Of a DNA stretch of 35,479 nucleotides, positions 9,659 to 34,372 are shown piece after piece. The position numbers and the translations under genes were made by a program. This DNA comes from a virus. The stretch is from UHGV virus genome UHGV-0144289; one strand, written 5' to 3'. Every line of letters starts with the position of its first letter. Position 1 is the first letter of the stretch. Under the pieces are notes generated by a model, which did not search any database, had not been told where the DNA came from, and saw nothing but the letters and a program-made list of their open reading frames with translations.

Positions 9659-10327
9659 ATGACCACGAATTTAAATTACCCAAAACCAGTAAAACCGGAT
9701 GATGGCTGCAACTGGCTCCCCGTTATTCTCTGGCGCATGAATGCCGGTGCGCGCGCCCGTAGCCGTTCCGTGTTCGTAGCGGCGCCACGTCCGGCCCCTG
9801 TACCAGGCATCACCCCGCAAAAACCGATTAAGCGAGAAATTATCGCCCCTACGGTTTCCGGCCGCAGGCGTAAAACCCACATCGGCACCGTGATTTATTC
9901 CAGAGGTGAAAAAAGCGTTCGCCTTAGCGAAGGCGCGACTGTCTGGTCTGCTGGCTCAAATGAGCATTTCGATAAAAAAACGGGCCAGCGCGTCGGCAGT
10001 ATTGGTCGTCACCGTCTGGTGCTGGAGAGTATCCGCCCATTGCAGGCCAGCGACGCACAACAGGACGCCGGGAGCGTCACCGCGCAGCAACTGGTAGCCG
10101 TGATGAAAGGCAAAACGCTTTCTTACCAGGGCATTCTGGCATTAATCCAGAAGCACTATCCCGATTGTCAGGTGACGACTAAAGAACTTCACGATCGCGT
10201 GTTCGGCATGTTCATGTCGAATTACGTGGGTATCACCCGTCACGACGATATGCCGGTGGTTCACTTCACGCTTAACAGCGTCGATCCCCGTTATTACATC
10301 GAGTCAGCGAAGAACAAGAGGGCATAA
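9659..10327 (+). CDS. Hypothetical protein (no recognised domain)
   Basis: 222 aa; ATG preceded by GAGGAAAGACCA and a conserved upstream block GCGCCTGACCAGCG. Confidence 0.6.
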   Translation: MTTNLNYPKPVKPDDGCNWLPVILWRMNAGARARSRSVFVAAPRPAPVPGITPQKPIKREIIAPTVSGRRRKTHIGTVIYSRGEKSVRLSEGATVWSAGSNEHFDKKTGQRVGSIGRHRLVLESIRPLQASDAQQDAGSVTAQQLVAVMKGKTLSYQGILALIQKHYPDCQVTTKELHDRVFGMFMSNYVGITRHDDMPVVHFTLNSVDPRYYIESAKNKRA

Positions 10328-10330
10328 GGC

Positions 10331-10564
10331 ATGGCCGGGCAATCAGATTACTTGCCGCCCGGCTTACCGCTTAATCGCGCCAAATGGCCGCAGGAGTGCC
10401 AGATCAAAGAGCACTACGACATGCGGGCCGCGGCACTCATACGCCAGCTGTTCGAGAAAAAAGTTACTCGACAGGCCATCGTAGAGCAGATTGCAGCGAC
10501 GCCGGAAAGCTACCGGGAGTTTTTCAAAGAACGATTAAATTTTTGGCGGGAGAAGCGGACATGA
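10331..10564 (+). CDS. Hypothetical small protein
   Basis: 77-aa ORF tightly packed between neighbours. Confidence 0.45.
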   Translation: MAGQSDYLPPGLPLNRAKWPQECQIKEHYDMRAAALIRQLFEKKVTRQAIVEQIAATPESYREFFKERLNFWREKRT

Positions 10565-10731
10565 AATTTTCAACACCTGATTTTATGCATTGCAGCCGCA
10601 GGACGCTGATGCTGTTCGTACTCAGTGCAAACGTTGTTGGCTGGATAGTCATTATCGCTCTGATATGGGCTGGATGTGAGGTTGCACAGTGGGCGCTGGA
10701 ATGTCTCCGCAGTAGTGGGGTGCTTGCGTGA
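10561..10731 (+). CDS. Small membrane protein (single hydrophobic helix)
   Basis: 56 aa; hydrophobic stretch LMLFVLSANVVGWIVIIALIWAG; start overlaps the previous stop (ATGA) and its stop overlaps the methyltransferase start. Confidence 0.45.
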   Translation: MKFSTPDFMHCSRRTLMLFVLSANVVGWIVIIALIWAGCEVAQWALECLRSSGVLA

Positions 10732-11318
10732 ATAACAAATACACCCTGATTTATGCGGATCCTCCATGGACTTACCGCGACAAAGCCAAAGACGGGGAAC
10801 GCGGCGCCGGGCACAAATACCAGACCATGACTGTGCTCGATATCTGCCGTCTCCCGGTCTGGGAACTGGCCGCTGAAAACTGCCTGCTGGCTATGTGGTG
10901 GGTACCGACTCAGCCGCTGGAGGCGTTGCGAGTAGTCGAGGCGTGGGGCTTCCGTCTGATGACCATGAAAGGCTTTACGTGGAACAAATGCTACAGCCGG
11001 CAGACCGACAAACTGGCCCTTGGAATGGGCCATTTGACCAGGGCGAACAGCGAGGATTGCCTTTTCGCTGTGCAGGGGAAATTACCCGCCCGGATGGATG
11101 CAGGGATCGTTCAGTCATTCACGGCCCCGCGTCTGGAGCATTCGCGCAAACCGGATATCGTGCGCGAAAAGCTGGTGCAGCTGCTGGGCGATGTGCCGCG
11201 TATTGAGTTATTCGCCCGCCAGTCGTCGCATGGTTTCGACGTGTGGGGCAATCAGTGTGAGTCGCCAGCGGTGGCGCTGCTGCCGGGCATTGCAGAATAT
11301 ATCGGGGAGGTAGCCTAA
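10728..11318 (+). CDS. DNA N6-adenine methyltransferase, MT-A70 family
   Basis: 196 aa; catalytic motif IYADPPW near the N-terminus, typical of MT-A70-like phage adenine methyltransferases. Confidence 0.85.
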   Translation: MNNKYTLIYADPPWTYRDKAKDGERGAGHKYQTMTVLDICRLPVWELAAENCLLAMWWVPTQPLEALRVVEAWGFRLMTMKGFTWNKCYSRQTDKLALGMGHLTRANSEDCLFAVQGKLPARMDAGIVQSFTAPRLEHSRKPDIVREKLVQLLGDVPRIELFARQSSHGFDVWGNQCESPAVALLPGIAEYIGEVA

Positions 11319-11320
11319 CC

Positions 11321-11551
11321 ATGAAAAACACTATTCAGGATTTAATGAATCACCAGTTCGCCATGCTGGAAACCGTCACCGATCCCAATATCAAAGGCGA
11401 CCTGCTTCAGGAAGAGTTATCGAGGGCTAAAGCGGTAGTGGAAATCGTCGGGGTGATGGTCGGTACTTATCGAGTTGCGCTCGACGCCCAGAAGGCTATT
11501 TATGACGGTACCGCAGGCAATGTACCTAAGATTATGGGGATCGAAAAATGA
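11321..11551 (+). CDS. Hypothetical small protein
   Basis: 76-aa ORF with start 2 nt after the methyltransferase stop. Confidence 0.5.
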   Translation: MKNTIQDLMNHQFAMLETVTDPNIKGDLLQEELSRAKAVVEIVGVMVGTYRVALDAQKAIYDGTAGNVPKIMGIEK

Positions 11552-12165
11552 TAGAGAAATACACTCCAGCCCAGGAGTTGTTTATCAAGCAGCATATTAA
11601 AAGCTCCACTGCGCGGGAATTAACTGAAATGTTTAACGCTAAATTTGGTACAAATAAGAGCGTGGGCGCTATTCGTATCTGGTGCAAATCTCATGGGTTA
11701 GGAAAGCAGTTTTTAATTGAGCCGCGCTATTCCGATGAGCAGCTGACTTTCATTTATGCCAATAGGAATCTAACGAATGCTGAACTTACAGAAAGGTTCA
11801 ACAGGAGATTCGGTACCGATAAAAAACCTGACAATATCAAGGATGTAAAGATAGCTCGCGGATGGACACGCGAACCTAAAGGCCGGAAACGCATTCTTCC
11901 ACAGTACATCACTGTTAATAAAGAGAAAATTAGACTCGATGTATACGTATATGAATGCGTACATGGAAAATTACCGTCTGGTTATTCGGTTATCCATCTG
12001 GATAATGATTTGAATAACAACAATATCAATAATCTACGCGCGGCACCTAAAGAAATACGCCGCCTGTTCTCTGGGGCGGGCTACTCAAAAATGCCGCAGG
12101 TTCTTGCTCCGGCGCTGTATGCACAAGTTATGCTCCGCCATGCAATTAAACGATTATCCAGCTAA
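11548..12165 (+). CDS. HNH homing-type endonuclease with two N-terminal DNA-binding repeats
   Basis: 205 aa; duplicated ~45-aa module (ELTEMFNAKFGTNKSVGAIRIW / ELTERFNRRFGTDKKPDNIKDVKIARGW) and HNH core VHGKLPSGYSVIHLDNDLNNNNINNL; markedly AT-rich compared with its neighbours. Confidence 0.75.
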   Translation: MIEKYTPAQELFIKQHIKSSTARELTEMFNAKFGTNKSVGAIRIWCKSHGLGKQFLIEPRYSDEQLTFIYANRNLTNAELTERFNRRFGTDKKPDNIKDVKIARGWTREPKGRKRILPQYITVNKEKIRLDVYVYECVHGKLPSGYSVIHLDNDLNNNNINNLRAAPKEIRRLFSGAGYSKMPQVLAPALYAQVMLRHAIKRLSS

Positions 12166-12177
12166 CTGAGGTGGTTA

Positions 12178-12516
12178 ATGGCTAAATCATCCGCAGAACG
12201 TAAAGCCGCGCAGAGGGCGCGGCAATCTGCCGCCGGCAACCGCAAAATTGAGCTGGTTCTCGATACGCAGGAACTGGACATGCTGGCGCATAACTGCGCC
12301 GCCCGGCGTCCGGGGCGTGAACCGTACGAACTGGCCGAGTACATCGCTATGCTGATCCGTCAGGATGATGCGCGGCTTAGTGGCCACATCAAATCGATCA
12401 GCAAACGTCTGTGTAGAAAATGCGGTGAGACGCTGCCGATCACCTCCTGCCCGTGTGCTGGTGATTCGCAATGCTGGGTAACGCGAGGGTGGCACGAAAC
12501 CAAACTGTCAGCATAG
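12178..12516 (+). CDS. Hypothetical protein with C-terminal cysteine cluster
   Basis: 112 aa; basic N-terminus, C-terminal CRKCGETLPITSCPCAGDSQC suggests a small zinc-binding element. Confidence 0.55.
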   Translation: MAKSSAERKAAQRARQSAAGNRKIELVLDTQELDMLAHNCAARRPGREPYELAEYIAMLIRQDDARLSGHIKSISKRLCRKCGETLPITSCPCAGDSQCWVTRGWHETKLSA

Positions 12517-12539
12517 CGAACAACCATACCAGTTAAAAC

Positions 12540-12568
12540 AGAACCGTCAGAAATGGCGGTTTTCTTTT
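12540..12568 (+). terminator. Weak terminator-like hairpin after the 112-aa gene
   Basis: AACCG...CGGTT stem followed by TTCTTTTG; large loop, so weak. Confidence 0.3.
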
Positions 12569-12658
12569 GAATTCAATCGGATATTTTGAGATTTATTGTT
12601 GATTTTTAACGATTCGTGCTCTTAAAAATTTGCGCTCACTGTCAGTTGGTAGTATATA

Positions 12659-12678
12659 TACTGTAATTTTATACAGTA
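12659..12678. promoter_or_regulatory. LexA binding site (SOS box) TACTGTAATTTTATACAGTA
   Basis: Perfect CTGT-N8-ACAG dyad with flanking TA, matching the enterobacterial SOS-box consensus; located ~20 nt upstream of the RBS of the next small gene and overlapping a probable -10 (TATATA). Confidence 0.8.
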
Positions 12679-12698
12679 TTGTTGTTGAGGGAGAGGTA

Positions 12699-12890
12699 GT
12701 GGTTGATAAGAAAGACGCAGGAGACCTTCTCCCCGACGATGGTGATGTACTGATAACGTGTGAAAATGGGAAGATTAAGAAGACCAGAATTGTCCATTCC
12801 GATGAGCACGTAGCGACACTTAACGCGTTGTTTGAATTAGCTAAATTGACGGGTTATACCATTATCAAACCAGACGGCAATATGCTATAA
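12699..12890 (+). CDS. Small SOS-regulated protein, candidate antirepressor
   Basis: 63 aa from GTG at 12699 (RBS GAGGGAGAGG); the longer TTG-initiated frame from 12630 would run through the promoter/operator and is less plausible; AT-rich island. Confidence 0.5.
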   Translation: MVDKKDAGDLLPDDGDVLITCENGKIKKTRIVHSDEHVATLNALFELAKLTGYTIIKPDGNML

Positions 12891-12958
12891 TTACCCCGTT
12901 GGCCTGAACACCCAACACCATGTAATTCTGAACAATTGCTGCGCTAAAGGGGAACCCA

Positions 12959-13555
12959 ATGGCGCAGTATTCTTTTGTAAAAGCACCCGGCGGTGTATTA
13001 ATTCCGGCAACGCCTGACGCCCGCGAATTCTTAGAAAAAAAAGTCCGCATGGGCGGTATTCTGTATGCGGATTTTAAACAGGCAAGGAACTCGGCATTTC
13101 ACCGTAAATTTTTTGCCCTCCTGAATCTGGGATTTGATTACTGGCAACCTTCCGGCGGTGCAATATCGCCAGCCGATAAAAAACTGGTTCGGGGTTACGT
13201 GCAGCTGGTGGCCCACTATGCCGGGCATGGCGACACATTGCAGGAACTGGCGGATCAGTATCTGCGCGATGAGGCAGAAAAACGCGCCGGCAATATCAGC
13301 GCGGTTAAATCGTTTGAAGCTTTCCGTTCCTGGGTAACTATCGAGGCCGGTTTTTATACCGAATACCAGATGCCTGATGGCACCACCCGCAAGGAACCCA
13401 AATCCATATCGTTCGCAAAAATGGACGATGTAGAATTTTCCCAGCTGTACAAATCCGTATTAGACGTCCTCTGGAATTTTATTTTATTCCGCACCTTCCC
13501 TAATCAGCAGGCAGCAGAAAACGCAGCCTCTCAGCTTTTCAGTTATGCGGCCTGA
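12959..13555 (+). CDS. DUF1367-like phage protein
   Basis: 198 aa; resembles the conserved lambdoid nin-region protein family (MAQYSFVKAPGG...FHRKFFALLNLGF) as I recall it. Confidence 0.6.
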   Translation: MAQYSFVKAPGGVLIPATPDAREFLEKKVRMGGILYADFKQARNSAFHRKFFALLNLGFDYWQPSGGAISPADKKLVRGYVQLVAHYAGHGDTLQELADQYLRDEAEKRAGNISAVKSFEAFRSWVTIEAGFYTEYQMPDGTTRKEPKSISFAKMDDVEFSQLYKSVLDVLWNFILFRTFPNQQAAENAASQLFSYAA

Positions 13556-13565
13556 GGCGGACACT

Positions 13566-23320: not shown

Positions 23321-26032
23321 GTGAGAATTCCAACGGGTAATTTTGGTAATGTGACACCGCAGGCACAGCAGACGCGTGTCGCTGTTAGCAATGTAGGCAC
23401 TATAGGCAATGCGGTGTCTGGTTTTGGGACCGCTACAGGGCAGGTAGCAGAACAAGTACAGCATGAGCAGGATAAAGCCGATGTGGCAGCCACGCAGGCG
23501 ATTCTGACTGATCTGGAAGCTAAATCTAATGACCGCTGGGAAAACCCGGAGACGGGCGCCACGGTCACTCGTCAGGGCTTTAAATCGTCCGGTGTGGTAA
23601 CCGATATGGATAAGGCCGACGCTGGCGATTACGAGGAAGCGCGGAAGCGCGTACCGCCCAACCAGTTAAACTATTTTGATGCGCAGTGGAAAGCAGGGCA
23701 GGTACGCCGGACAAGTACCTACAGCGGTTTCGAGCGTGCACAGACGGATGAGGCCCAGCGGCAGCAGCTTAATGCGACGGTGACCACTTCCGTCGAACAA
23801 GAGGCCAGCGCATACGATAATCCGATGCAGGCAGGGCTGATACGTAGCGCCCGTAAACACTCGATCGAGATGTATGGCCAGGCGCGTGGCTGGCCGCAGG
23901 AGCGCATCGACGCGGCGGTATCAGAAGCGAACCAAAAAGCGCTGGAGCAGCGCGCGCAGAACTACGCGGTAACCAATCCCACTGGCTGGCTGAATGGCGA
24001 TTTTACGTTGATTAACAGCAGCACCGGCGAACTCGATATGCGCGCCGTTGGCCTGGTGGAGTCCGGTGGTAAGCACCGCAATGCGGATGGTAGTCTTGTT
24101 ACATCGCCCGCTGGCGCGCAGGGTGAATTTCAGTTGATGCCGGACACAGGGAAAGAACTGGCGGCTAAACGTGGCGTGGAATACAACCCGGACGATCCTG
24201 TGCAGCATGCGCAGCTGGCGCGTGATTATGCCGGGCAGCTCAGTAAAAAATACCAGTCAGAACCACTGGCCGGGGCCGCGTATAACTGGGGGATGGGTAA
24301 CGTCGATAAACTGATCGCCAAAGTGGGCGACCCGCGCAAAGGCGAAATCTCGATGGCGGATTTCGTTAAGCAGCTACCCGCAGAAACGCGCGGTTGGTTG
24401 TCCCGCTACAACAAAAATAAAACCGGTCTCGACCCGGTAGCAGTAAACAAAATCGACAATATCGCCGAAGCGCAGATCCGGCAGCAGCGTACGGCGCTGC
24501 GCCAGCAGATTGACCCGATTCTCAATAATACAATGGCGCAGCTGTATAACGGCGAGGTGCCGGATGCTATGCCGAACGCCTCCACCATTTTGTTTGCGTA
24601 TGGTGAGCAGGGGCAAACAGCGGTCAAGCAGCTGGATATCGCGATTGATAACGCCAGAACCTTCCAGGCTATTCAGTACGCCACCCCGGCAGAACAGCAG
24701 GCCGAACTGGCGAAGGTGAAGCCGCAGGCAAACGATCCCGATTTTGCGCTAAAACTTGATGCACACGGCAAACTTAGCGCGCTGGTGCAGAAGAGCAACG
24801 CCAATATTCAGGCGCAGCGCGACTCCGCCCGCTTTAACGATGCGCTGCTCTCCGGCGAGAAACTCGACCCGAGCAATAAATCTATGCAGAGGGCGGCGGA
24901 CAATACGCCATCGGCGCTTAATTTCCGCATTAACGATGCAACCACCCACGATGCTATCGTACAGCAGGTAAACCAGACCGGCATTGTTCCGTCGCAGGTA
25001 ACATCACAGCTCAATGCTATTTCCCGCTCCAGTAGCTCAGATGTAGTGAAGCAAGGCGCTGAAATATTCAATAGGCTTTACGACTCTAAATCTTCTAACG
25101 TCAGTGATATGCCAAAAGATATACAAAGTTTTTATCTGACAATTAAGCAATTGACCGAAGCTGGTATGGCTTCTGATGAGGCAGTGAAACAGGCACAGAA
25201 TATAACCTATAACCAGAACGATGCATTAAAAAATCAGTTAACTTCGACGCAGAGCACTAAAGAATATAAAAGCGAGCGAGATAGTGCTATGGATTCAGCT
25301 CGAAATAGTATGGCTCAGTGGTTCAGAATTGATCCAAAGGCAAGCGATACAACAACTGATGCAGTTAATTTTCGAAATGACTACCAGTCCCTTTACGATA
25401 TCAACTATCGAAATTCTGGTGGGAATTCTGAAATTGCCAAAAAAATGACCAACACTCAAATCTCTCGTAACTGGAGCATTAGCGAAGTGAACGGCAAGGC
25501 CCAGTTCATGAAATATGCACCAGAAGCACTATATAACTTTGGTCCGTCAGGTTGGCAGGCTGAACTGTGGAAAGAAAAAAAAGAGGAACTAATGTATGGC
25601 GAGCGTAATGAGGAGATCTCTACCAGCCCAACGCAGTTAGGAATCACGTCAGGAACTGCAACAAATATTATCTCAAACACCCCCGAGTCTAAAGTTGGTG
25701 GTGAATTGGAAATTGTGCCTGATGTATATACTCCAAGAATTAAAGATTATGCAATTTGGATTCGCTTTAAGGATAAAGATGGTAATGAAAAGGCACAGCC
25801 TTATAACGACAAATTTGGTAGGCAAATGCGGTGGAGGCCATCCCTAGAGGAATGGGGGCCTTACCAGAAAATGCAGAAGGAACGAGAGCAGAAAGAACAG
25901 GATGAAATTTCGCGCGGAAAAGATATTCGCGGATTTAAAGCGAAACATCGAGCATTGGATGAGCAGTACCAGCGTTTGCATGATGAGCGACTTGAACGTA
26001 CGAAAAATTATTTTTCATGGAGTAATGAATAA
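23321..26032 (+). CDS. Internal virion / ejection protein with lytic transglycosylase domain
   Basis: 903 aa; transglycosylase-like motif GLVESGGKHRNADGSLVTSPAGAQGEFQLMPDTG around nt 24050-24180, as in the N-terminal domain of T7 gp16. Confidence 0.65.
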   Translation: MRIPTGNFGNVTPQAQQTRVAVSNVGTIGNAVSGFGTATGQVAEQVQHEQDKADVAATQAILTDLEAKSNDRWENPETGATVTRQGFKSSGVVTDMDKADAGDYEEARKRVPPNQLNYFDAQWKAGQVRRTSTYSGFERAQTDEAQRQQLNATVTTSVEQEASAYDNPMQAGLIRSARKHSIEMYGQARGWPQERIDAAVSEANQKALEQRAQNYAVTNPTGWLNGDFTLINSSTGELDMRAVGLVESGGKHRNADGSLVTSPAGAQGEFQLMPDTGKELAAKRGVEYNPDDPVQHAQLARDYAGQLSKKYQSEPLAGAAYNWGMGNVDKLIAKVGDPRKGEISMADFVKQLPAETRGWLSRYNKNKTGLDPVAVNKIDNIAEAQIRQQRTALRQQIDPILNNTMAQLYNGEVPDAMPNASTILFAYGEQGQTAVKQLDIAIDNARTFQAIQYATPAEQQAELAKVKPQANDPDFALKLDAHGKLSALVQKSNANIQAQRDSARFNDALLSGEKLDPSNKSMQRAADNTPSALNFRINDATTHDAIVQQVNQTGIVPSQVTSQLNAISRSSSSDVVKQGAEIFNRLYDSKSSNVSDMPKDIQSFYLTIKQLTEAGMASDEAVKQAQNITYNQNDALKNQLTSTQSTKEYKSERDSAMDSARNSMAQWFRIDPKASDTTTDAVNFRNDYQSLYDINYRNSGGNSEIAKKMTNTQISRNWSISEVNGKAQFMKYAPEALYNFGPSGWQAELWKEKKEELMYGERNEEISTSPTQLGITSGTATNIISNTPESKVGGELEIVPDVYTPRIKDYAIWIRFKDKDGNEKAQPYNDKFGRQMRWRPSLEEWGPYQKMQKEREQKEQDEISRGKDIRGFKAKHRALDEQYQRLHDERLERTKNYFSWSNE

Positions 26033-28935
26033 TGCCAATTTACCCCACACCCAGCGAATTCAGTAATGGTTATATACCTGCTGGTAGCGCCCTGGATGCC
26101 CCAGTAGGGTTCGATATTGATTTACCTGAAGGTGCAAACCCGGAACCTCAACCGCCACAACCGTCCGTATGGAGCGCTGCATTCCGACAGAATAACCTAC
26201 TAGCAGGGATTTTTCGGCCTGCAAAACAATTTGAACCGGCTGAAGGGTATAACCCTTACGCTGATAAGAATGAAATTCACGGCTATGAGCAATGGGGATC
26301 TGCTTTCGCAGATTCTCAGTCACCAGAAGAAACAGCCTGGATTAAAAACCAGATTGACGATGAAAACGAAGACCGCCGTGTACTGTCCGAGGCTGGCACA
26401 GAGGGAACTTTAGCCAGTATCGCTGCTGGGGCTATCGATCCTGTCACGGTGGCTTCGATGTTCATCCCCGGCGCCCAGGGAACTCTGGTTGCGCGCATTG
26501 GTTCGCAGGTTGCTATCGGTGCTGCTGGTACCGCGCTTAGCGAGGTTGTGCTCAACAACGAACAGTATACCAGAACAGCCAGGGAGAGTGCCGCGCATAT
26601 CACAGCCGGCGCACTTCTCAGCGGTGTATTTGCTACTGCTGGCGCTATGATCACCCCATCGGTAAGAAATGCGGCAACCCGGGAAGTAGCCGAGGCGCTC
26701 GATAATATGAATGCCTCGCCAACGATTAATAACGCAGCCGACGCCCTGGCGGATACTTTACCGAACGGTGGCAGCGTCGGCGCTATGCGTATTCGCGAGG
26801 CGACGCTGGAAGACCTCACGCCAGTGTCCGGCGGCCCGCTCGGCAAGCTGGCTAAAAAGGCCGGTAGCTATCTGACGCCGATCACCCGCCTGATGGAATC
26901 CCCATCAAAAGAAGCGCGCCGGACAGCGCTGGAGCTGGCGGAGAATAACTTCACGCTGGAAGGCAACCTGCGCGGTATCGAAACTCCGGTAGCTGCCGAG
27001 ACGCGCGTACGTGGCTGGCGCCGCGAAGAGGCGGCCGTCGTTACTGCTAATAAGCAGGCATACACCCAGTATAAAGCCGAGGGCGGCGATCTGGGTTATA
27101 CGGCCTTCCGTGAACAGGTTGGTGAGGCGCTGCGTAACGGCGACGTGCACGTTAATGCGAAAGTGCAGGAAGCGGCGCAGGCAATGCGTACGGTCATTAA
27201 CCGCGTGAAGACAGCCCAGCAGGAACTGGGCTTACTCCCGCCGGATGCCGAATTGAAAGCGATGGGGCAGACCAGCTATTTCCCGCGCGTGTACAAGGTG
27301 GGGAAAATCGTTAGCGAGCGCGATAAATTCCGCAATATGCTGGTTGACTGGTGGTCACGCGGTGAGAAAACCATGTCCCGCGAAGATGCCGAAATCGCCG
27401 CCGATACCACTATTAACCGTATTGTCGGGGCCAAAATTCCGCAGGAGTTCGCCAACGTCTTTATGGTGAAAGCGCCGGGTAGCACTAAATCGCGTACGTT
27501 GAGTGTTCCCGATCGTCTGATGAAAGACTATCTGGAGAGCGATGCAAATTACGTCCTGCAGCGTCATATCCGCGAAGCCTCAGCGGAGATCGAATTAACC
27601 CGCACCTTTGGCAACAAATCGCTGGATTCGCAGCTTGCCGCCATCCAGGACGAATACGACGCGCTGATGCGTTTACGCCCGGCAGAACAGGAAAAGCTGG
27701 CGAAGGCGCGCGAAGCCGACCTGCGCGATATTCTGGCGCTCCGCGATCGCCTCGTTGGAACCTACGGTATGCCGGATGATCCATCATCATTTTTCGTTCG
27801 CGCCGGTGCTTTCCTGCGTAGTGCCAACTTTGTAACGAAACTCGGTGGCATGACGGTATCCGCTATTCCGGATCTGGCGCGCGGCATGATGGTTAACGGC
27901 TTCAGCAATACCATGCGTGGATATGGCGCGCTGATCACTCGATCACCGGCTTACCTCGCCAGCCGGGCGGAGCAGAAGAAAATGGCTGTAGGGCTGGAAA
28001 CTATTCTTCAAACCCGCTCGCGTACGATGGGCGATCTGGTGGATAGCTCTTCGCGCACCACTGCGATCGAAGCGGGCATGGAGCGCATTACCGATGTGTT
28101 CGGCAAGCTGACCATGATGGGCCACTTTGACGACATGAACAAATCGGTAAATGGCATGATTACTTCAGACGGTATTTTGTCAGGTGCGTTCCCGGCGAAA
28201 CGTCTGGCTAAGCTCGGCATCAATGACAAAATGGCCGAACGCATCCAGAAAGAGTTTCAGAAGCACGGCGAAGTCATTCAGGGCTGGCATATCGGCAATT
28301 TCGAAAAATGGGATGACCAGTACGCCGCCGGCTTGCTGCAATCTGCGGTACTGAAAGACGTAAACAATACCGTTATCACGCCGGGTATCGGTGATACGCC
28401 GCTATGGGCCAGTACCCCGCTGGGGAAAACTGTATTCCAGTTTAAGTCTTTTGCTACGGCATCCTATAACCGCGCGACGCTCGGTGGCCTGCAGGAAGGT
28501 ACCGCGCAATTCTATTACGGTACCGCCTTCCAGATTGGCCTGGGCTCATTGACCTATGCGCTTAAGCAGGCGGCTAACGGTCGCGAGGTTGATTTGACGC
28601 CGCAGAAGATGGTACTAGAGGGTATCGACCGTTCGGGTATCCTCGGCCCGCTGATGGAATACAACAACATGGCGGAAAAGGCATCTGGCGGCATGATAGG
28701 ACTTGGGCCATTGCTCGGCACCGGTACGCAATCCCGTTATGCCAGCCGCGGCTTTATCGGTTCTGCTCTGGGGCCAACCTTTGGCCTGCTGGATACTGTA
28801 ACCGATGTGACCGCTGGCGTGCTGAATGGCGACGCTGGAGACCGGGTCCTGCATAGCGCGCGAACGCTGTTACCGGGCAATAACCTGTTCTGGATCGCGC
28901 CGCTGATTAACCAGGTCGATCCCGGTATGCGTTGA
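26032..28935 (+). CDS. Large internal virion / DNA ejection protein
   Basis: 967 aa; position and size consistent with T7 gp15/gp16-type core proteins. Confidence 0.55.
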   Translation: MPIYPTPSEFSNGYIPAGSALDAPVGFDIDLPEGANPEPQPPQPSVWSAAFRQNNLLAGIFRPAKQFEPAEGYNPYADKNEIHGYEQWGSAFADSQSPEETAWIKNQIDDENEDRRVLSEAGTEGTLASIAAGAIDPVTVASMFIPGAQGTLVARIGSQVAIGAAGTALSEVVLNNEQYTRTARESAAHITAGALLSGVFATAGAMITPSVRNAATREVAEALDNMNASPTINNAADALADTLPNGGSVGAMRIREATLEDLTPVSGGPLGKLAKKAGSYLTPITRLMESPSKEARRTALELAENNFTLEGNLRGIETPVAAETRVRGWRREEAAVVTANKQAYTQYKAEGGDLGYTAFREQVGEALRNGDVHVNAKVQEAAQAMRTVINRVKTAQQELGLLPPDAELKAMGQTSYFPRVYKVGKIVSERDKFRNMLVDWWSRGEKTMSREDAEIAADTTINRIVGAKIPQEFANVFMVKAPGSTKSRTLSVPDRLMKDYLESDANYVLQRHIREASAEIELTRTFGNKSLDSQLAAIQDEYDALMRLRPAEQEKLAKAREADLRDILALRDRLVGTYGMPDDPSSFFVRAGAFLRSANFVTKLGGMTVSAIPDLARGMMVNGFSNTMRGYGALITRSPAYLASRAEQKKMAVGLETILQTRSRTMGDLVDSSSRTTAIEAGMERITDVFGKLTMMGHFDDMNKSVNGMITSDGILSGAFPAKRLAKLGINDKMAERIQKEFQKHGEVIQGWHIGNFEKWDDQYAAGLLQSAVLKDVNNTVITPGIGDTPLWASTPLGKTVFQFKSFATASYNRATLGGLQEGTAQFYYGTAFQIGLGSLTYALKQAANGREVDLTPQKMVLEGIDRSGILGPLMEYNNMAEKASGGMIGLGPLLGTGTQSRYASRGFIGSALGPTFGLLDTVTDVTAGVLNGDAGDRVLHSARTLLPGNNLFWIAPLINQVDPGMR

Positions 28936-28939
28936 TAGC

Positions 28940-29374
28940 CTAGTTACACGAACTAACAGTAACTGCATTGAAGAATGTTCCGGAGGGGTAGGTGTAAACA
29001 TATTGCATCTCCCCACCTAATCTAATGAATGAACCCAGTGGATTTTTATTCGTGCATAACCCATTTTTTGTTATTTCATCCATTCGAGATTTAGCAACGT
29101 CGATTGAAGTATGGGTCTCTGAAGCGGTAGCCAGCATTTCTTCTTCGGTTACGCCTAGCCTTACCTGCGCGATTATTTTGTTTCCATCAGCAGAAACATC
29201 TTTCATTATTACGTTTTCTGATAACGTTAAGGGCAGTCTGGGGCGTACCTGAGTGACGATTTTCTGAGCCTGTTCGCATACATCAAACTCAGTTAAGTTT
29301 GGTTTACACTTATCTGCTGCGAATGCCGGATGTGAGATCATTACTAATATCGAAATTAGACCAATTTTTTTCAT
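28940..29374 (-). CDS. Secreted protein of unknown function (moron, opposite strand)
   Basis: 144 aa; N-terminal signal peptide MKKIGLISILVMISHPAFA-AD; four Cys in the mature part; AT-rich; has its own A/T-rich promoter region at 29375-29460. Confidence 0.7.
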   Translation of the reverse strand: MKKIGLISILVMISHPAFAADKCKPNLTEFDVCEQAQKIVTQVRPRLPLTLSENVIMKDVSADGNKIIAQVRLGVTEEEMLATASETHTSIDVAKSRMDEITKNGLCTNKNPLGSFIRLGGEMQYVYTYPSGTFFNAVTVSSCN

Positions 29375-29463
29375 GAAAAATAAACGCCTTTAGCTGAGTG
29401 TTAGGTATAAGAAACATTTAACAAAAAACCATACAGCGATCAATTTTATAATTAGATTAGAAA

Positions 29464-29480
29464 TAGTCAGGATTCCGACC
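29464..29480. repeat. Late-region hairpin motif TAGTCAGGATTCCGACC, copy 2
   Basis: Same 17-mer at 34300-34316; preceded by a TATAAT-like element. Confidence 0.8.
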
Positions 29481-29527
29481 TCTAAGCCGACACATCATAG
29501 CCCTATGGATAAACACGGGGCTTTTTT

Positions 29528-29869
29528 ATGCATTCAGATTACAAAACTCGCCTTACTGCTCTTAGCGATAAGCTCACCGACGTAGTTCTGGAAGAAGCCG
29601 ATCCGGATAACTGGCCGGGGGCAGGGAAGGAAATCACAAAGCACACTAAACAGGAACGCGGTGATCGGTACTGGCATAAGAAGAACGCGGCCGCATCGCT
29701 GACGCTGCTGGTAAAAGTCCATTCGCTGATTGGCATGCATACGCGCGGGGGGACGCCTAAACCCGGCGAGGATCCGGACGATGAAGCATTCCGCCTGGGG
29801 CAACAGGTATCTGCGGCTGAACGGGCAGCACAGGAAGTTATCGAACGCATACAACAGCGGAAAAAATGA
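29528..29869 (+). CDS. Putative terminase small subunit
   Basis: 113 aa; immediately upstream of and overlapping the large-subunit gene by 4 nt; assignment by position only. Confidence 0.4.
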   Translation: MHSDYKTRLTALSDKLTDVVLEEADPDNWPGAGKEITKHTKQERGDRYWHKKNAAASLTLLVKVHSLIGMHTRGGTPKPGEDPDDEAFRLGQQVSAAERAAQEVIERIQQRKK

Positions 29870-31476
29870 TTTCATTCGTCGCCTTTTTCATCATATGGGC
29901 GGAGCGGATGGGGTGGGAGGTTCCCGACTGCCATTATCGAGCCTGCCACTGGTTGGAACACCGCGGGGATCTCGCGGTGCTTCGCTGTTTTCGTGGCTTT
30001 GGTAAATCTACCATTCTGGCGGTGTATAACGCATGGCGATATTACCAGAACCGCCAGTACCGCATTCTTCACCAGTCTGAAGCTGACGGCACCGCGTACA
30101 AAACCAGCCGCGATACGCAGAACGTTTTACGCAATCACCCACTGACCAAAGGCATGCTACCGGACGGACAGGGAACCGTTGAACAGTGGTGGGTTAACGG
30201 CTCTCTGGATATGCGTAACGGCAGCATGTACGCAAAGGGGATCCTCTCTAACGTTACCTCGGCCCGCGCTGATGAATGCCAGAACGATGACGTAGAAGTA
30301 CCCCGCAATATCCAGACGCCAGAGGCGCGGGAAAAGCTGCGTTATCGTCTCGGTGAACAGACACACATTCTTGTCCCCGGCGGGCGAAAGCTGTTTATCG
30401 GCACGCCGCATACCCACGATAGCCTTTACGATGAGGTTGAATCTATGGGCGCCGACTGTCTGACCATCAAACTATTCGGTAAAGAATTTAGAATCGAGGA
30501 AAAACAGGCCACTGCGAGCCGTTACTCGTTACCGTTCCGGCCGGAATATGTTTTCGTCGGTATTCACATTGGCGCGCGACTGCTCGTTGAAGGTGTTGAT
30601 TATCGTCTTAACGATGACGGTATCGAGTTTGCCGAGGCTCCCGGCACCACGGTTGACTGTTACGCCGATTGTGAATGGCCAGAAAGGTTCACTCCGGAGG
30701 AAATGACAAAGCGCCGTCGCGAGACTCGCACAATTAACGAATGGGACAGCCAGTACCAGCTGCACAGTAAACCGGTTGGCGAGGTTCGTCTCGATCCCGA
30801 CCGCATACGCGAATACAACGTACAGCCTGAAATCCGGTACGCGAACCGCTCCTGCTCGATGTGGCTTGGCCAGACGCAAATTGTTGGTGCTGTTGCCTGG
30901 TGGGATGTGGCCACCGGCAAAGTTAAGGCCGACGCCTCGGCGTTCTCTCTGATTTTCACCGACGCACGCGGGCATCTGTACTGGCATGTTTGCCAGGGGC
31001 TTACGGGCGAACTGGCGGAATTCGACGACAACGACAAAATCACCGGCGGTCAGGTGATGCAGATTAAAGAGCTGGTGCTTAAATACCAGATCCCGCTGGT
31101 CTGCGTCGAGGTGAACGGCCCGGGCAGCTTTGCCGGGAAATTGCTGATTCAGGCACTAAAGGGTACCGGCTGCGGCGTACGGGAAGAATTCAGCGTGACC
31201 AATAAACAAAAGCGCATCCTCGATGCATTCGAAGCGCCGCTGTCGTCGCGCTTCCTCTGGGCGCATACCGACGTGCTCGACGGCCCAATGTATGACCAGA
31301 TGCGCGACTTTAACCCGGCGCTGACTAATCAGCCAGATGACTTTATCGACTCTGGCTCTGGCGCAATCAGCTCAACACCAGTGCGCATTGGTAAATTGGT
31401 CGGGATTCCGACCGCACAGGCGCGGGAACATTGGCAACCAAATGATGGCGATCACATGGTCGCCGTAGATTACTAG
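29866..31476 (+). CDS. Terminase large subunit (T7 gp19-like)
   Basis: 536 aa; Walker A-like FRGFGKST in the N-terminal ATPase domain, acidic catalytic residues downstream; size matches T7-type terminases. Confidence 0.8.
   Translation: MISFVAFFIIWAERMGWEVPDCHYRACHWLEHRGDLAVLRCFRGFGKSTILAVYNAWRYYQNRQYRILHQSEADGTAYKTSRDTQNVLRNHPLTKGMLPDGQGTVEQWWVNGSLDMRNGSMYAKGILSNVTSARADECQNDDVEVPRNIQTPEAREKLRYRLGEQTHILVPGGRKLFIGTPHTHDSLYDEVESMGADCLTIKLFGKEFRIEEKQATASRYSLPFRPEYVFVGIHIGARLLVEGVDYRLNDDGIEFAEAPGTTVDCYADCEWPERFTPEEMTKRRRETRTINEWDSQYQLHSKPVGEVRLDPDRIREYNVQPEIRYANRSCSMWLGQTQIVGAVAWWDVATGKVKADASAFSLIFTDARGHLYWHVCQGLTGELAEFDDNDKITGGQVMQIKELVLKYQIPLVCVEVNGPGSFAGKLLIQALKGTGCGVREEFSVTNKQKRILDAFEAPLSSRFLWAHTDVLDGPMYDQMRDFNPALTNQPDDFIDSGSGAISSTPVRIGKLVGIPTAQAREHWQPNDGDHMVAVDY
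31398..31413. repeat. Late-region hairpin motif GGTCGGGATTCCGACC, copy 3 (inside the 3' end of the terminase gene)
   Basis: Part of an identical 20-mer shared with 18685-18704; ~80 nt upstream of the tail-fibre start. Confidence 0.8.
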
Positions 31477-31493: not shown

Positions 31494-34013
31494 ATGTCGG
31501 TACCGAACCAGACACCCTATAACATCTATACCGCCAACGGGCTGACGACTGTCTTTGCCTATGAGTTTTACCTGATCAGCGCCAGCGATATTCAGGTCAC
31601 AATCAACGGCAACGAAGTAACGTCCGGCTATACAGTGTCTGGTGTGGGTAATACTGGCGGTGGCGAAGTTACTTTTCTGACCGCGCCGGCCAATGGCGCT
31701 ACAGTCATTTTTGAACGTGTAACGCCGACTTACAGGCTCACTGATTACCAGGACAACGGCGACCTGCTGGCCGATACAGTTAACAAAGATTTTGACCGTC
31801 TCTGGATGGCTATTCAGCGCGCGTTTATTTATCTCGGAGTGGCCCTAAGTCGCCCGCTGTTCGGCGGTGGACCTTTCAACGCTAACGGCTACCGGATAGC
31901 AAATCTGGCCGATCCAGTTAACGATCAGGATGCAGCTACTAAAAAATTTGTAATTGAAAATGGAAAAATTAATCTAGCTCGTACTCTACGCGTTCCGGAG
32001 TCTAGCATCACACCGTTACCTTCCATTGCAGAACGAAAAAATAAAATCGTTGCAATGGATAATAATGGCAATCCATTGATGGTATTGCCTTCGAGTGGAA
32101 GTGCAGCAGATGTAATGATTGAGTATGCCAAACCGACAGGTAGCGGGCATATAGGGGTTCTTACTGGAGGCACCGTTGAAGATGCAATAAAATACGTAAC
32201 CCCTGAAATGATAAGGATTAATGGTGAAAGATATATTCACGGCATCACTGCTGATGCAACTAAATTTCTACAGGCAGCTATAGATTACGGAAAAGCTAAT
32301 AACCTTCCGGTATATTTAACTAAAATGTATCCGTGCATATCTTCACCGATAGAGTTTAATTTGCCATTCGACGATGGGACTGTATACCCAGGGTGGATAG
32401 GGAACGGTGATTCAAATATTGCTCCTGAAATACCAGTTAAGGCAAAAGCAGCACTGCGTGTTTATGATGATTCAATGATTGTTGGTGAAAACCAACACAA
32501 TTGTGGGATTATTGGTAATTTTTCAAAAACTGCGGGACCATGGGATCATACATCTTCCATGGGTCTATACATCGCAGGTGACAGCGGACCAGATCAATAC
32601 ATAAAGTATCACCTTTCTGATTTCAGGATTAGCGGATTCTTTATTGGGCAATGGGTAGACGGGACTGTAAACCGCTGTGTAGAAAATAATATGATGTACT
32701 CAGGGTGTGCCATTCCTGCTTGTTATCAAGGATCTGATTCTCTGGCGCAAACTGGGCTGACATTATATTGGTATAATATTACAGGCCCTGTTTTTGGCGG
32801 GCGCTGGCTAACGAGAAATCATGCATACGCGTCTCAGTACCTTCCGCCGTACCCGGCATCAGATATTCATCGGGCGGGATGGAATGATTCGTACCATGTA
32901 GACAAGTTTCATTATTATGGTGATACCGGCATGGACTGGACACATCCAGCATATGCCGCTCTTGACACTTGGTTTGATACGTATGTTTTCAAGTCTGCAA
33001 ACTGCTTGCCTACGGCCAGCGGTGGTCGGTTGTCAAATAATCAGCAGAATGGGGTTTACCCAGTTGATACCTATAGAGGTATAGCTGGGCGCGCAAGAAC
33101 TATTATTTCACTTCCGGGAAGGGAGATATTGCATTGCAATATTGGTGAGGCTAAAGTGCTGTGGTCTCCAAGAACGCCATTCTACCACTCTGCTCAATTC
33201 GTTGACGGATTTAAATCATATGTTGGTAACAGTAAAATAAGGACTCTTATACTGGAAAGGGTAGGAATCATCAAGTATGGCCTTGGTGATGTTGCTGGAA
33301 ATAGATTTAATGTTAATAATGTTGATCCCTACGAACCATCTCTTTCAACATTTCCAGCGATGGCAACAAGAGGAAATATTTTCGCCCTTGATATTGTAAA
33401 AGGTGGCGCGGTTCAGGCTGCCCCAGTTAATGAATTTAACGGCACAAGAATCGGTGCCGGTGAGAATATAGTTGCTCAAAGAAAGCTTGGAGATAATTCA
33501 AACTATCGTCTTTTCGGTCTTCAGGAGTTAAACGGAACAAATTTATCCGATAAGTATGTTTTTAATCGAAATGATGCCTATATGCCGCCAATAGCTTTTC
33601 CCGGTGGTAATGCTGCTCAGTTTAAGTATCTTTATGGCACATTCGCACCAACTATTACAATTGGCGGCGCAAGCGTAATACCATCATCCATTATTGGAAT
33701 TTACCGTCGGTTTGGTGATGTTGTTCGTTGCGATATAAGGGTCAGATCAACCTCTTTACTGGTTAGCACTGCGGGCGCCATAGTAATTAGTGGTCTTCCT
33801 TTTACAGCCGCTTCTATACAGGAGGGTGGGTCTAAAGGAAGCATAATTCTTAGTACGGCTACAGGGGTTTTAGTTATGCCGCTTGTTCCTGCTGGGACAA
33901 ATCAAATGACGATTATTAAATCGTCAGCCCAAGAAATATATTCTCAAGCAGCTGGTACTTTTGATTTCACTCTCCAGTGTACTTTTGATTATGTTGTTCC
34001 TTTTAATTCATGA
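31494..34013 (+). CDS. Tail fibre / tailspike: T7 gp17-like N-terminal adaptor fused to a large receptor-binding (probably polysaccharide-depolymerase-like) domain
   Basis: 839 aa; N-terminal ~150 aa resemble the T7 gp17 N-terminus (GYRIANLADPVNDQDAATKKFV versus T7 GRRIVNLANAVDDRDAVPFGQL, from memory); the remainder is AT-rich, Asn/Gly/Tyr-rich. Confidence 0.85.
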   Translation: MSVPNQTPYNIYTANGLTTVFAYEFYLISASDIQVTINGNEVTSGYTVSGVGNTGGGEVTFLTAPANGATVIFERVTPTYRLTDYQDNGDLLADTVNKDFDRLWMAIQRAFIYLGVALSRPLFGGGPFNANGYRIANLADPVNDQDAATKKFVIENGKINLARTLRVPESSITPLPSIAERKNKIVAMDNNGNPLMVLPSSGSAADVMIEYAKPTGSGHIGVLTGGTVEDAIKYVTPEMIRINGERYIHGITADATKFLQAAIDYGKANNLPVYLTKMYPCISSPIEFNLPFDDGTVYPGWIGNGDSNIAPEIPVKAKAALRVYDDSMIVGENQHNCGIIGNFSKTAGPWDHTSSMGLYIAGDSGPDQYIKYHLSDFRISGFFIGQWVDGTVNRCVENNMMYSGCAIPACYQGSDSLAQTGLTLYWYNITGPVFGGRWLTRNHAYASQYLPPYPASDIHRAGWNDSYHVDKFHYYGDTGMDWTHPAYAALDTWFDTYVFKSANCLPTASGGRLSNNQQNGVYPVDTYRGIAGRARTIISLPGREILHCNIGEAKVLWSPRTPFYHSAQFVDGFKSYVGNSKIRTLILERVGIIKYGLGDVAGNRFNVNNVDPYEPSLSTFPAMATRGNIFALDIVKGGAVQAAPVNEFNGTRIGAGENIVAQRKLGDNSNYRLFGLQELNGTNLSDKYVFNRNDAYMPPIAFPGGNAAQFKYLYGTFAPTITIGGASVIPSSIIGIYRRFGDVVRCDIRVRSTSLLVSTAGAIVISGLPFTAASIQEGGSKGSIILSTATGVLVMPLVPAGTNQMTIIKSSAQEIYSQAAGTFDFTLQCTFDYVVPFNS

Positions 34014-34020
34014 GGCAAAT

Positions 34021-34290
34021 ATGACTTTCAGAGTGACGCAGACTATAGGGAAATCTATAGCATACCCAACGCTAGGTGTATGGATGCCACCAGAAGATAC
34101 TTCGATTGAGGTTGAATACCAGGCTGTATCGTTAATATCGCTAAATAATGGAACAGCGACTGTTTCATTTAAAGTTAGCATTGATGGTTGTCTTTCCAGT
34201 GGGGAGCTTACCCATTCTTTTGTCTACTCTGGGTCTGGAAGCCCTCTTGAAGAGGCAGAGGAATCACTTAAAAGCAAACTCGTAATATAG
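34021..34290 (+). CDS. Small protein downstream of the tail fibre (possible fibre accessory/chaperone)
   Basis: 89 aa from the ATG at 34021; same low GC as the fibre C-terminal domain. Confidence 0.45.
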   Translation: MTFRVTQTIGKSIAYPTLGVWMPPEDTSIEVEYQAVSLISLNNGTATVSFKVSIDGCLSSGELTHSFVYSGSGSPLEEAEESLKSKLVI

Positions 34291-34300
34291 AATTTCATTT

Positions 34301-34316
34301 AGTCAGGATTCCGACC
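34301..34316. repeat. Late-region hairpin motif AGTCAGGATTCCGACC, copy 4
   Basis: Upstream of the lysis cassette; preceded by a TAGAAT-like element. Confidence 0.8.
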
Positions 34317-34372
34317 TTAGCTTCGCCTTACCCTCGCATCATTCCACATAGTGATCCCCATGGGGGTAAGGC

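Follow-up and report, generated by a model that had tools for sequence, protein, structure and literature searches.

The window analysed here, a 35,479-nucleotide (nt) stretch of viral DNA (UHGV virus genome UHGV-0144289), is a 35.5-kb Klebsiella pneumoniae prophage, a temperate podovirus whose structural genes are T7-like, and this study concerns its tailspike (tail fibre) gene together with the small open reading frame (ORF) which follows it. In the ORF list the tailspike gene lies on the plus strand at 31494-34013 and encodes a protein of 839 amino acids (aa), while an 89-aa ORF starting from ATG occupies 34021-34290 on the same strand. The gene for the T7-type large terminase (29866-31476) is located 5' of the fibre gene, and the order 3' of the terminase is fibre gene, 89-aa ORF, P21-type holin, lysozyme and spanin-like ORF. 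The fibre protein is very probably a modular tailspike in which a gp17-type anchor is joined to an imported depolymerase, within a cassette shared with the accessory small gene. Its 839-aa sequence is exactly that of the Klebsiella pneumoniae protein WP_204746338.1 / QRU19296.1, the first of these accessions being named 'phage tail fiber domain-containing protein' by NCBI; besides CP070088.1, a K. pneumoniae chromosome in which it is encoded next to dapA, many other contigs contain it.

The T7 gp17-type N-terminal particle-attachment (anchor) domain covers residues 9-153 (31518-31952, plus strand), where the Pfam family PF03906 (Phage_T7_tail) is matched with an E-value of 3e-11 and 43.7 bits, well above the curated cut-off of 25.2. 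This bears out the first-pass annotation, made from the DNA letters alone, which had assigned the N-terminal ~150 aa to the attachment domain of T7-type fibres. The T7-type tail partners of such an anchor, portal and nozzle, were found by Pfam in the same genome. Residues 1 to 209-221 are 86-90% identical to fibres of sister prophages having other C-termini; in a wider set, the identity to Klebsiella prophage fibres ending in domains of other families (Beta_helix, Phage_tail_beta and Pectate_lyase_3) is 65-90% over 25-36% of the query. In Foldseek, the anchor part matched N-terminal fibre chains of the LME-1, HRP29, Carin-1, Kp7, Kp9 and T7 tail complexes with E-values from 2e-4 to 0.1, in a portion of the model where the predicted local distance difference test (pLDDT) score is below 50. 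By analogy with T7 gp17, residues 1 to ~170-180 would form a gp17-type anchor and neck, through which the trimer would dock at the junction between tail adaptor and nozzle. The neck, or linker, is AT-rich (~residues 142-179, 31918-32030, plus strand, ...DQDAATKKFVIENGKINLARTLRVPESSITPLPSIAERKNKI); the sister prophages share it, and the crossover zone described below lies within it.

The exchangeable receptor-binding domain which follows (32030-34013, plus strand) is a putative capsule depolymerase of the KN1dep / S1-2 type. In a PDB search, residues 79-834 aligned lengthwise with 9m4d ('probable tail spike protein', E 3e-94) and with 9m4c ('Depolymerase, capsule KN1-specific', E 3e-92), and the protein matched phrog_22560 with E 2.5e-229. 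Identity to the tailspikes of Klebsiella phages JY917, phi1_175008 and K64-1 (S1-2) is 53-55%; for S1-2, entered in UniProt as 'Depolymerase, capsule KN4-specific', it is 53% over residues 217-839. DepoCatalog places KN1dep and S1-2 in structural Class 4A, defined by a short beta-helix with inserted alpha-helices and then a double C-terminal domain, and equates KN4 with KL124 and KN1 with KL101/KL120/KL170 (PMC13385381). The AlphaFold2 (AF2) model of the fibre has a mean pLDDT of 67, which reaches ~90 over residues 240-440, 460-640 and 710-839, and shows a beta-rich core (270-640) with an inserted helix (485-499) and a beta-rich C-terminal region (672-834), a layout which agrees with Class 4A in its succession of domains. 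The best Foldseek matches were beta-helix tailspikes, i.e. Det7 gp208 (E 1e-9), Acinetobacter phage spikes, K2-2 TSP and phi92 colanidase. From the PDB, 9m4c itself was not returned and TM-scores were low, because domain orientations are unreliable in a monomer model.

Several acidic residues are invariant in 27 homologues (D293, D294, D306, E312, D465, D491 and E588) and are candidates for catalysis. PF03906 is the sole Pfam match on the 839-aa protein and a C-terminal self-cleaving chaperone domain (Peptidase_S74, PF13884) was not found; the fibre C-terminus aligns with the non-chaperone C-domain of 9m4c. The capsule depolymerase anticipated from the DNA alone is supported, at the level of homology, by the lengthwise alignment with the KN1-specific structure and by the 53% identity to the KN4 (KL124) enzyme S1-2, and the beta-helix expected of it agrees with the Foldseek matches of the AF2 model. 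Residues ~180-839 would be an imported capsule depolymerase in which a beta-helix carrying alpha-helical insertions precedes two C-terminal beta domains, and the spike would bind and cleave capsular polysaccharide so that the virion reaches the outer membrane. Within the uncommon KN1dep / S1-2 class the tailspike is divergent, and it is mounted on a temperate T7-like anchor.

The base composition changes sharply within the fibre gene. The terminase gene has a GC content of 0.551 and fibre codons 1-150 one of 0.518; beyond these codons the fibre gene has 0.421 and the 89-aa ORF 0.422, and from the holin to the window end the value is back at 0.547. Maximum-likelihood GC change points fall at nt 31918 (gain 27 nats) and nt 34311 (gain 21 nats), and the lowest-GC 2350-nt stretch of the 35.5-kb window begins at 31940. 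At third codon positions the GC content goes down from 0.50-0.66 to 0.20-0.44, therefore the shift is more than an effect of amino-acid composition; amino-acid composition alone, considered as the source of the AT-richness, was ruled out by this third-position shift and by the breakpoints. The GC drop starts ~110 nt before the exchanged cassette, and the AT-rich neck still belongs to the backbone. The first-pass annotation had described AT-richness from ~nt 31950 through the 89-aa ORF, and this holds, yet the late region has other AT-rich pockets at 24501-26032 (0.458) and 28940-29527 (0.35-0.41), the fibre segment being the largest. The pocket at 24501-26032 corresponds to the C-terminal half of a 903-aa ejection ORF. 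With composition computed as non-uniform across the gene (0.518 vs 0.421), and with beta-helix and enzymatic features predicted for the C-terminal domain, the initial account of the gene stands. The variable segments of the sister prophages have a GC of 0.45-0.49 vs 0.54-0.57 in their flanks, suggesting a common gene pool of lower GC through which receptor-binding cassettes would circulate.

The limits of the cassette emerge from comparison with other prophages. By blastn, sister prophages L007, L008 and L009, which occupy the same dapA-adjacent chromosomal site and share the backbone of the window, are 82-93% identical to it from 29462 to 32006-32074, inside the fibre gene, and have no DNA similarity thereafter until 34293-34302. 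This right-hand breakpoint (plus strand), placed by blastn against the three sisters, by alignment and by the GC change point at 34311, is 3-12 nt past the stop codon of the 89-aa ORF. Prophage L006, which differs from the window in its backbone, lysis genes and fibre N-terminus (anchor), matches it solely at 32034-34249, with 80% DNA identity. In an alignment of the left junction, the window tracks L009 to ~32030 and then L006, with the crossover at ~32020-32040 in the conserved neck, at the short motif CGnAAAAAyAAAAT (encoding RKNKI) which is present in all five aligned sequences. The breakpoints with the sisters and with L006 are complementary and bracket the AT-rich segment; therefore the exchanged cassette is ~nt 32030-34292, comprising the receptor-binding domain (residues ~180-839) and the 89-aa ORF. 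The same breakpoints substantiate the horizontally exchanged host-range cassette that had been proposed for this locus, and the co-acquisition of the downstream ORF is likewise upheld by the position of the right breakpoint just past its stop codon and by a homologous ORF in the same place in L006. The depolymerase domain and the 89-aa gene would have arrived together as one low-GC cassette. In a megablast search against the phage collection the fibre region had no match, and protein-level searches alone were informative.

Chromosome CP070088.1 carries a second prophage (L052, 5,000,834-5,015,428) with a different backbone and with holin_8, GH19 endolysin and HicA toxin genes nearby. It encodes an 864-aa fibre and a 91-aa downstream ORF of the same receptor-binding and small-ORF families as the window, and the presence in one cell of two unrelated prophages with one receptor-binding type fits selection by the capsule type of the host.

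The 89-aa ORF belongs to PHROG 7836, annotated 'unknown function', which is matched by residues 1-87 over profile positions 1-87 of 92 (E 3.5e-20). It is separated from the fibre gene by a 7-nt gap, with neither a terminator-like site nor an above-chance promoter-like site between the two, and a Shine-Dalgarno-like GAGG (34012-34015, plus strand) overlaps the fibre TGA (34011-34013) and lies 5 nt before the small-ORF ATG. Translation of the 89-aa gene appears to be coupled to that of the tailspike gene. Compared with L006, it has a proportion of non-synonymous differences (pN) of 0.28 and of synonymous differences (pS) of 0.80, indicating purifying selection, and it is a real, protein-coding gene. 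It changes ~5 times faster than the receptor-binding domain (pN 0.059) in the same comparison. Between the window (31494-34290) and L006 (6001-8876), the last 450 spike residues are 89% identical and the small proteins only 58%; the 89-aa gene here has either an unusually fast evolution or a partly separate history.

The encoded protein is acidic (isoelectric point, pI, 4.6) and of 9.5 kDa; a lipoprotein, signal-peptide or membrane role was considered and rejected given this pI and the lack of a hydrophobic segment. Its AF2 model (pLDDT 89.6) has four long antiparallel strands and then a C-terminal helix, with a motif F-x-YSG-x-GNP-L-x-EAE-x-x-L conserved where the last strand meets the helix and the most variable part in the middle of the protein. 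Nothing significant was retrieved from Pfam, NCBIfam, PADLOC or a sequence-profile search of the PDB, and no match was found among PDB folds (best Foldseek E 0.11, TM <0.4). Known tail-fibre assembly chaperones (Tfa / Caudo_TAP, gp38-like) show no likeness to it in sequence or fold. In a viral structure library, its matches were all to uncharacterised proteins, from phages of Klebsiella, Erwinia and Serratia. A phmmer search of 1.84 billion representative proteins returned 79 clusters (50% identity), 73 of which are stand-alone proteins of 84-130 aa; no fusion of the small protein to a tailspike (Rosetta-stone fusion) was found among these clusters. Matches in giant repeat proteins with Calx-beta, DUF5979 or Big_3_5 domains were judged compositional, the matched domains being mutually unrelated. 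A word-indexed protein search yielded 2 relatives from the single sequence and 42 from a family alignment built on fetched loci.

In every case examined, the PHROG 7836 homologue comes immediately after a large tailspike or depolymerase gene of its own strand, at a spacing of at most ~100 nt and usually of at most 13 nt. This arrangement of spike and small ORF occurs in Drulisvirus, Webervirus, Schitoviridae, Ackermannviridae, Alcyoneusvirus, Pavtokvirus and several prophage types. The carriers include Drulisvirus JKT5 and Webervirus K64PH164C4. The small ORF is found 3' of the exopolysaccharide (EPS) depolymerase genes gp16 of Erwinia phage Pavtok and gp94 of the N4-like phage Rexella, 3' of the tailspike genes of jumbo phage KP13-7 and Kaypoctavirus K60PH164C1, and 3' of the gene for a 'colanic acid degradation protein' in K54_rec4; RCIP0012 has two copies of the spike and small ORF pair. 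In Taipeivirus UPM 2146, gp200 lies 3' of gp201, a 51%-identical homologue of the receptor-binding domain of the window. Prophages with lambda-like, baseplate-J-type and other backbones also have the small ORF 3' of a tailspike gene, and in L007 it is present and uncalled as a gene. The UPM 2146 region (L024, 98715-112592) contains four consecutive tailspike genes, each of which is then followed by a small ORF of 49-92 aa; gp200 alone belongs to PHROG 7836, and the other three small ORFs are unrelated to it and to one another.

The same association was recovered when IMG/VR was scanned with a degenerate DNA motif (YSG-GNP-L-EAE) taken from the small ORF alone. All 27 loci found (27/27) are family members, and in 21 of the 21 for which upstream sequence is available, a long coding region of the same strand has its end within ~13 nt of the small ORF. 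Co-variation was evaluated on 32 pairs of spike and small ORF (496 comparisons) by a Mantel test with 2000 permutations. The identity of the small protein is correlated with that of the last 450 spike residues with r 0.85, a value reached in 0/2000 permutations, vs r 0.05 (not significant) with that of the N-terminal anchor. Where receptor-binding domains share at least 80% identity, the small proteins are 91% identical on average and the anchors unrelated. The small protein thus tracks the receptor-binding domain and not the anchor; therefore both genes move as a unit onto many anchors, and co-acquisition of the small ORF with the receptor-binding domain is a general pattern.

A functional coupling of the 89-aa protein to the spike is the favoured reading, put forward tentatively; the protein would be a non-essential, late-expressed accessory partner of the spike, acting as an assembly or stability helper or as a spike-bound subunit. 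In slightly more guarded terms, PHROG 7836 could be a widespread and undescribed class of tailspike partner, which would travel together with the receptor-binding domain, the two genes making up a host-range module of podo-, sipho- and myoviruses infecting capsulated Enterobacterales (Klebsiella, Raoultella, Erwinia and, by structural match only, Serratia). A number of observations weigh against such coupling. Small proteins which are 45-59% identical also accompany unrelated receptor-binding domains, and this argues against a tight, fold-specific fit; phages JY917, K64-1 (S1-2), KN1-1, Koku and phi1_175008 have a homologous receptor-binding domain with the PHROG 7836 gene absent after it; KN1dep and S1-2 are among the recombinantly produced enzymes of defined specificity in DepoCatalog (PMC13385381); and physical linkage alone would give the observed co-variation. 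For the spike itself, similar caution is imposed by identities to characterised enzymes (53% and 31%) which are too low to assign a capsule type, by an enzymatic activity and a capsule substrate that are both predicted from homology, and by the low confidence of the anchor model (pLDDT <50), for which the presumed docking mode is derived from the Pfam match and the T7 analogy.

It is unlikely that the tailspike requires the 89-aa protein as a dedicated chaperone which acts in trans on folding or trimerisation, like Tfa or gp38, even if the small ORF is directly 3' of the spike gene with a ribosome-binding site overlapping the spike stop, is inherited with the receptor-binding domain, and keeps the same gene arrangement in all lineages checked. 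The tail-fibre assembly genes of lambda, Mu, P2 and T4 share this position and this co-variation with their fibre. Such a role is opposed by the lack of similarity to known chaperones in Pfam, NCBIfam, PDB sequences and PDB structures, by the similar small proteins of unrelated receptor-binding domains, and by the presence of KN1dep and S1-2 in DepoCatalog as enzymes recombinantly produced and with defined specificity. An essential chaperone role is also unlikely because five phages have the homologous domain without a PHROG 7836 gene. Of the possible chaperone that the first-pass annotation had envisaged, gene position and co-variation with the receptor-binding domain fit, whereas these five phages speak against it. 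The same five phages, in which homologous receptor-binding domains dispense with the small gene, are compatible with a passenger ORF (e.g. with an anti-defence, exclusion or host-modifying role) which hitch-hikes in a recombination hot spot and has no tie to the spike. Linkage would suffice to explain the co-variation, and accessory genes have hot spots 3' of tailspike genes: L009 has two more unrelated small ORFs after the small ORF, and the other spikes of UPM 2146 have unrelated small ORFs after them. A mere passenger is nonetheless doubtful, since its position, strand and 1-13 nt spacing are kept in podo-, sipho- and myoviruses, virulent as well as temperate, with wholly different neighbours, it lacks a promoter or terminator of its own, the motif-only scan never found it apart from a spike, and a PADLOC match is absent.

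As for the cassette as a whole, the low GC of 31918-34311 could in principle reflect a local amino-acid or codon constraint in a long-resident gene, with no horizontal acquisition, and since the variable segments of the sisters are low-GC as well, it might be a property of the gene class. This explanation is highly improbable: the shift is greatest at third codon positions and coincides with complementary homology breakpoints, and the same cassette, at 80% DNA identity, is found on an unrelated anchor and backbone.

Klebsiella capsule depolymerases set the host range of phages and are under development as anti-virulence enzymes, and the small-ORF sequence tracks the receptor-binding domain across at least 8 phage lineages. 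The cassette boundaries, mapped within a few tens of nt, could guide domain swapping. If functional coupling were true, domain swaps in phage engineering and the recombinant production of depolymerases should consider the second gene; if the small protein affects the assembly, stability or activity of the spike, receptor-binding modules would be defined and transplanted differently, and if it has no such effect, the locus would be a clean case of a gene that hitch-hikes within a recombination hot spot. The interest for host-range engineering and depolymerase production is moderate, and the central claim on the tailspike is an ordinary one.

The remaining genes of the window are those of a T7-like temperate phage. 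An integrase gene lies at 583-1599 on the minus strand, and Pfam recognises the T7-type portal (PF12236, E 1e-122), the capsid protein (PF19821) and the nozzle protein (PF25675, E 2.7e-8); a 187-aa ORF between the capsid and nozzle genes, in the adaptor position, has no Pfam match. A GNAT acetyltransferase and a transglycosylase-containing ejection protein are also encoded. The early region at 10217-13557 (adenine methylase, DUF1367 and neighbours) shares 84.5% DNA identity with Stenotrophomonas phages BUCT708 and BUCT709, and the nearest phage relatives of the structural region are Yersinia phages YeP4-6, with only ~77% over 1.3 kb. The ejection block at 23393-29465 consists of the 903-aa transglycosylase-containing protein and a 967-aa protein; in the dapA-adjacent prophage of CP070088.1 (L005) it is swapped for non-homologous genes of 651, 442, 832 and 97 aa, and the fibre cassette and lysis genes are 99.5% identical to those of the window.

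A second replaceable segment is found at 28940-29461, consisting of a minus-strand 144-aa ORF (28940-29374, GC 0.405), which has no Pfam or PADLOC match, and an AT-rich spacer. The homology with the sisters ends at 28939 and resumes at 29461, and the sister prophages hold other ORFs of 145, 108 or 216 aa at this site. Past the right end of the fibre cassette, a conserved intergenic stretch of ~70 nt before the holin gene (34303-34372) is common to all prophages with the same backbone. It contains an inverted repeat CCTTACCC...GGGTAAGG whose 3' arm abuts the holin start codon, and the stretch may have a regulatory or translational role in the expression of the lysis genes.

Among known systems, the spike is closest to KN1dep of phage KN1-1 (9m4c, with its relative 9m4d) and to S1-2 of K64-1, with which it shares the lengthwise alignment, the beta-helix core, the inserted alpha-helix and the C-terminal beta domains; the C-terminal residues FDYVVPFNS of the JY917 homologue are identical to those of the window spike. 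KN1dep and S1-2 differ in being carried on Przondovirus or Alcyoneusvirus anchors, whereas the anchor of the window is that of a temperate T7-like prophage, and KN1-1 and K64-1 S1-2 have no PHROG 7836 gene, whereas the window spike has one downstream. At 31-55% identity, judged from sequence comparison, the capsule specificity of the window spike probably differs from those of the KN1dep / S1-2 group.

The Tfa proteins of lambda, Mu and P2 and gp38 of T4 are encoded by assembly or adhesin genes located 3' of fibre genes, which co-vary with the distal part of the fibre. The small gene of the window resembles them in its 3' position, its co-inheritance and its co-variation with the distal part. 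It differs in that their partners are fibres, whereas the partner here is a beta-helix tailspike, in the lack of sequence or structure likeness, and in being dispensable for homologous receptor-binding domains. A literature search did not find a description of the small partner gene family or of its strict linkage to depolymerase domains; the fibre itself is of a known type, and the small partner gene family is the sole unexplained part.

Conserved anchors with exchangeable receptor-binding domains, and crossovers at conserved motifs, are well documented in Klebsiella and E. coli phages (PMC13385381, PMC10408124). In modular receptor-binding proteins of this kind (T7 gp17-type; Latka et al., via DepoCatalog, PMC13385381; E. 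coli tailspikes, PMC10408124), the anchor is conserved within the lineage, the receptor-binding domain is exchanged and the crossover falls in a conserved neck motif, as is the case in the window. The unit exchanged here, by comparison, regularly includes a second gene, of a sort undescribed in those papers on modular tailspikes (PMC13385381, PMC10408124).

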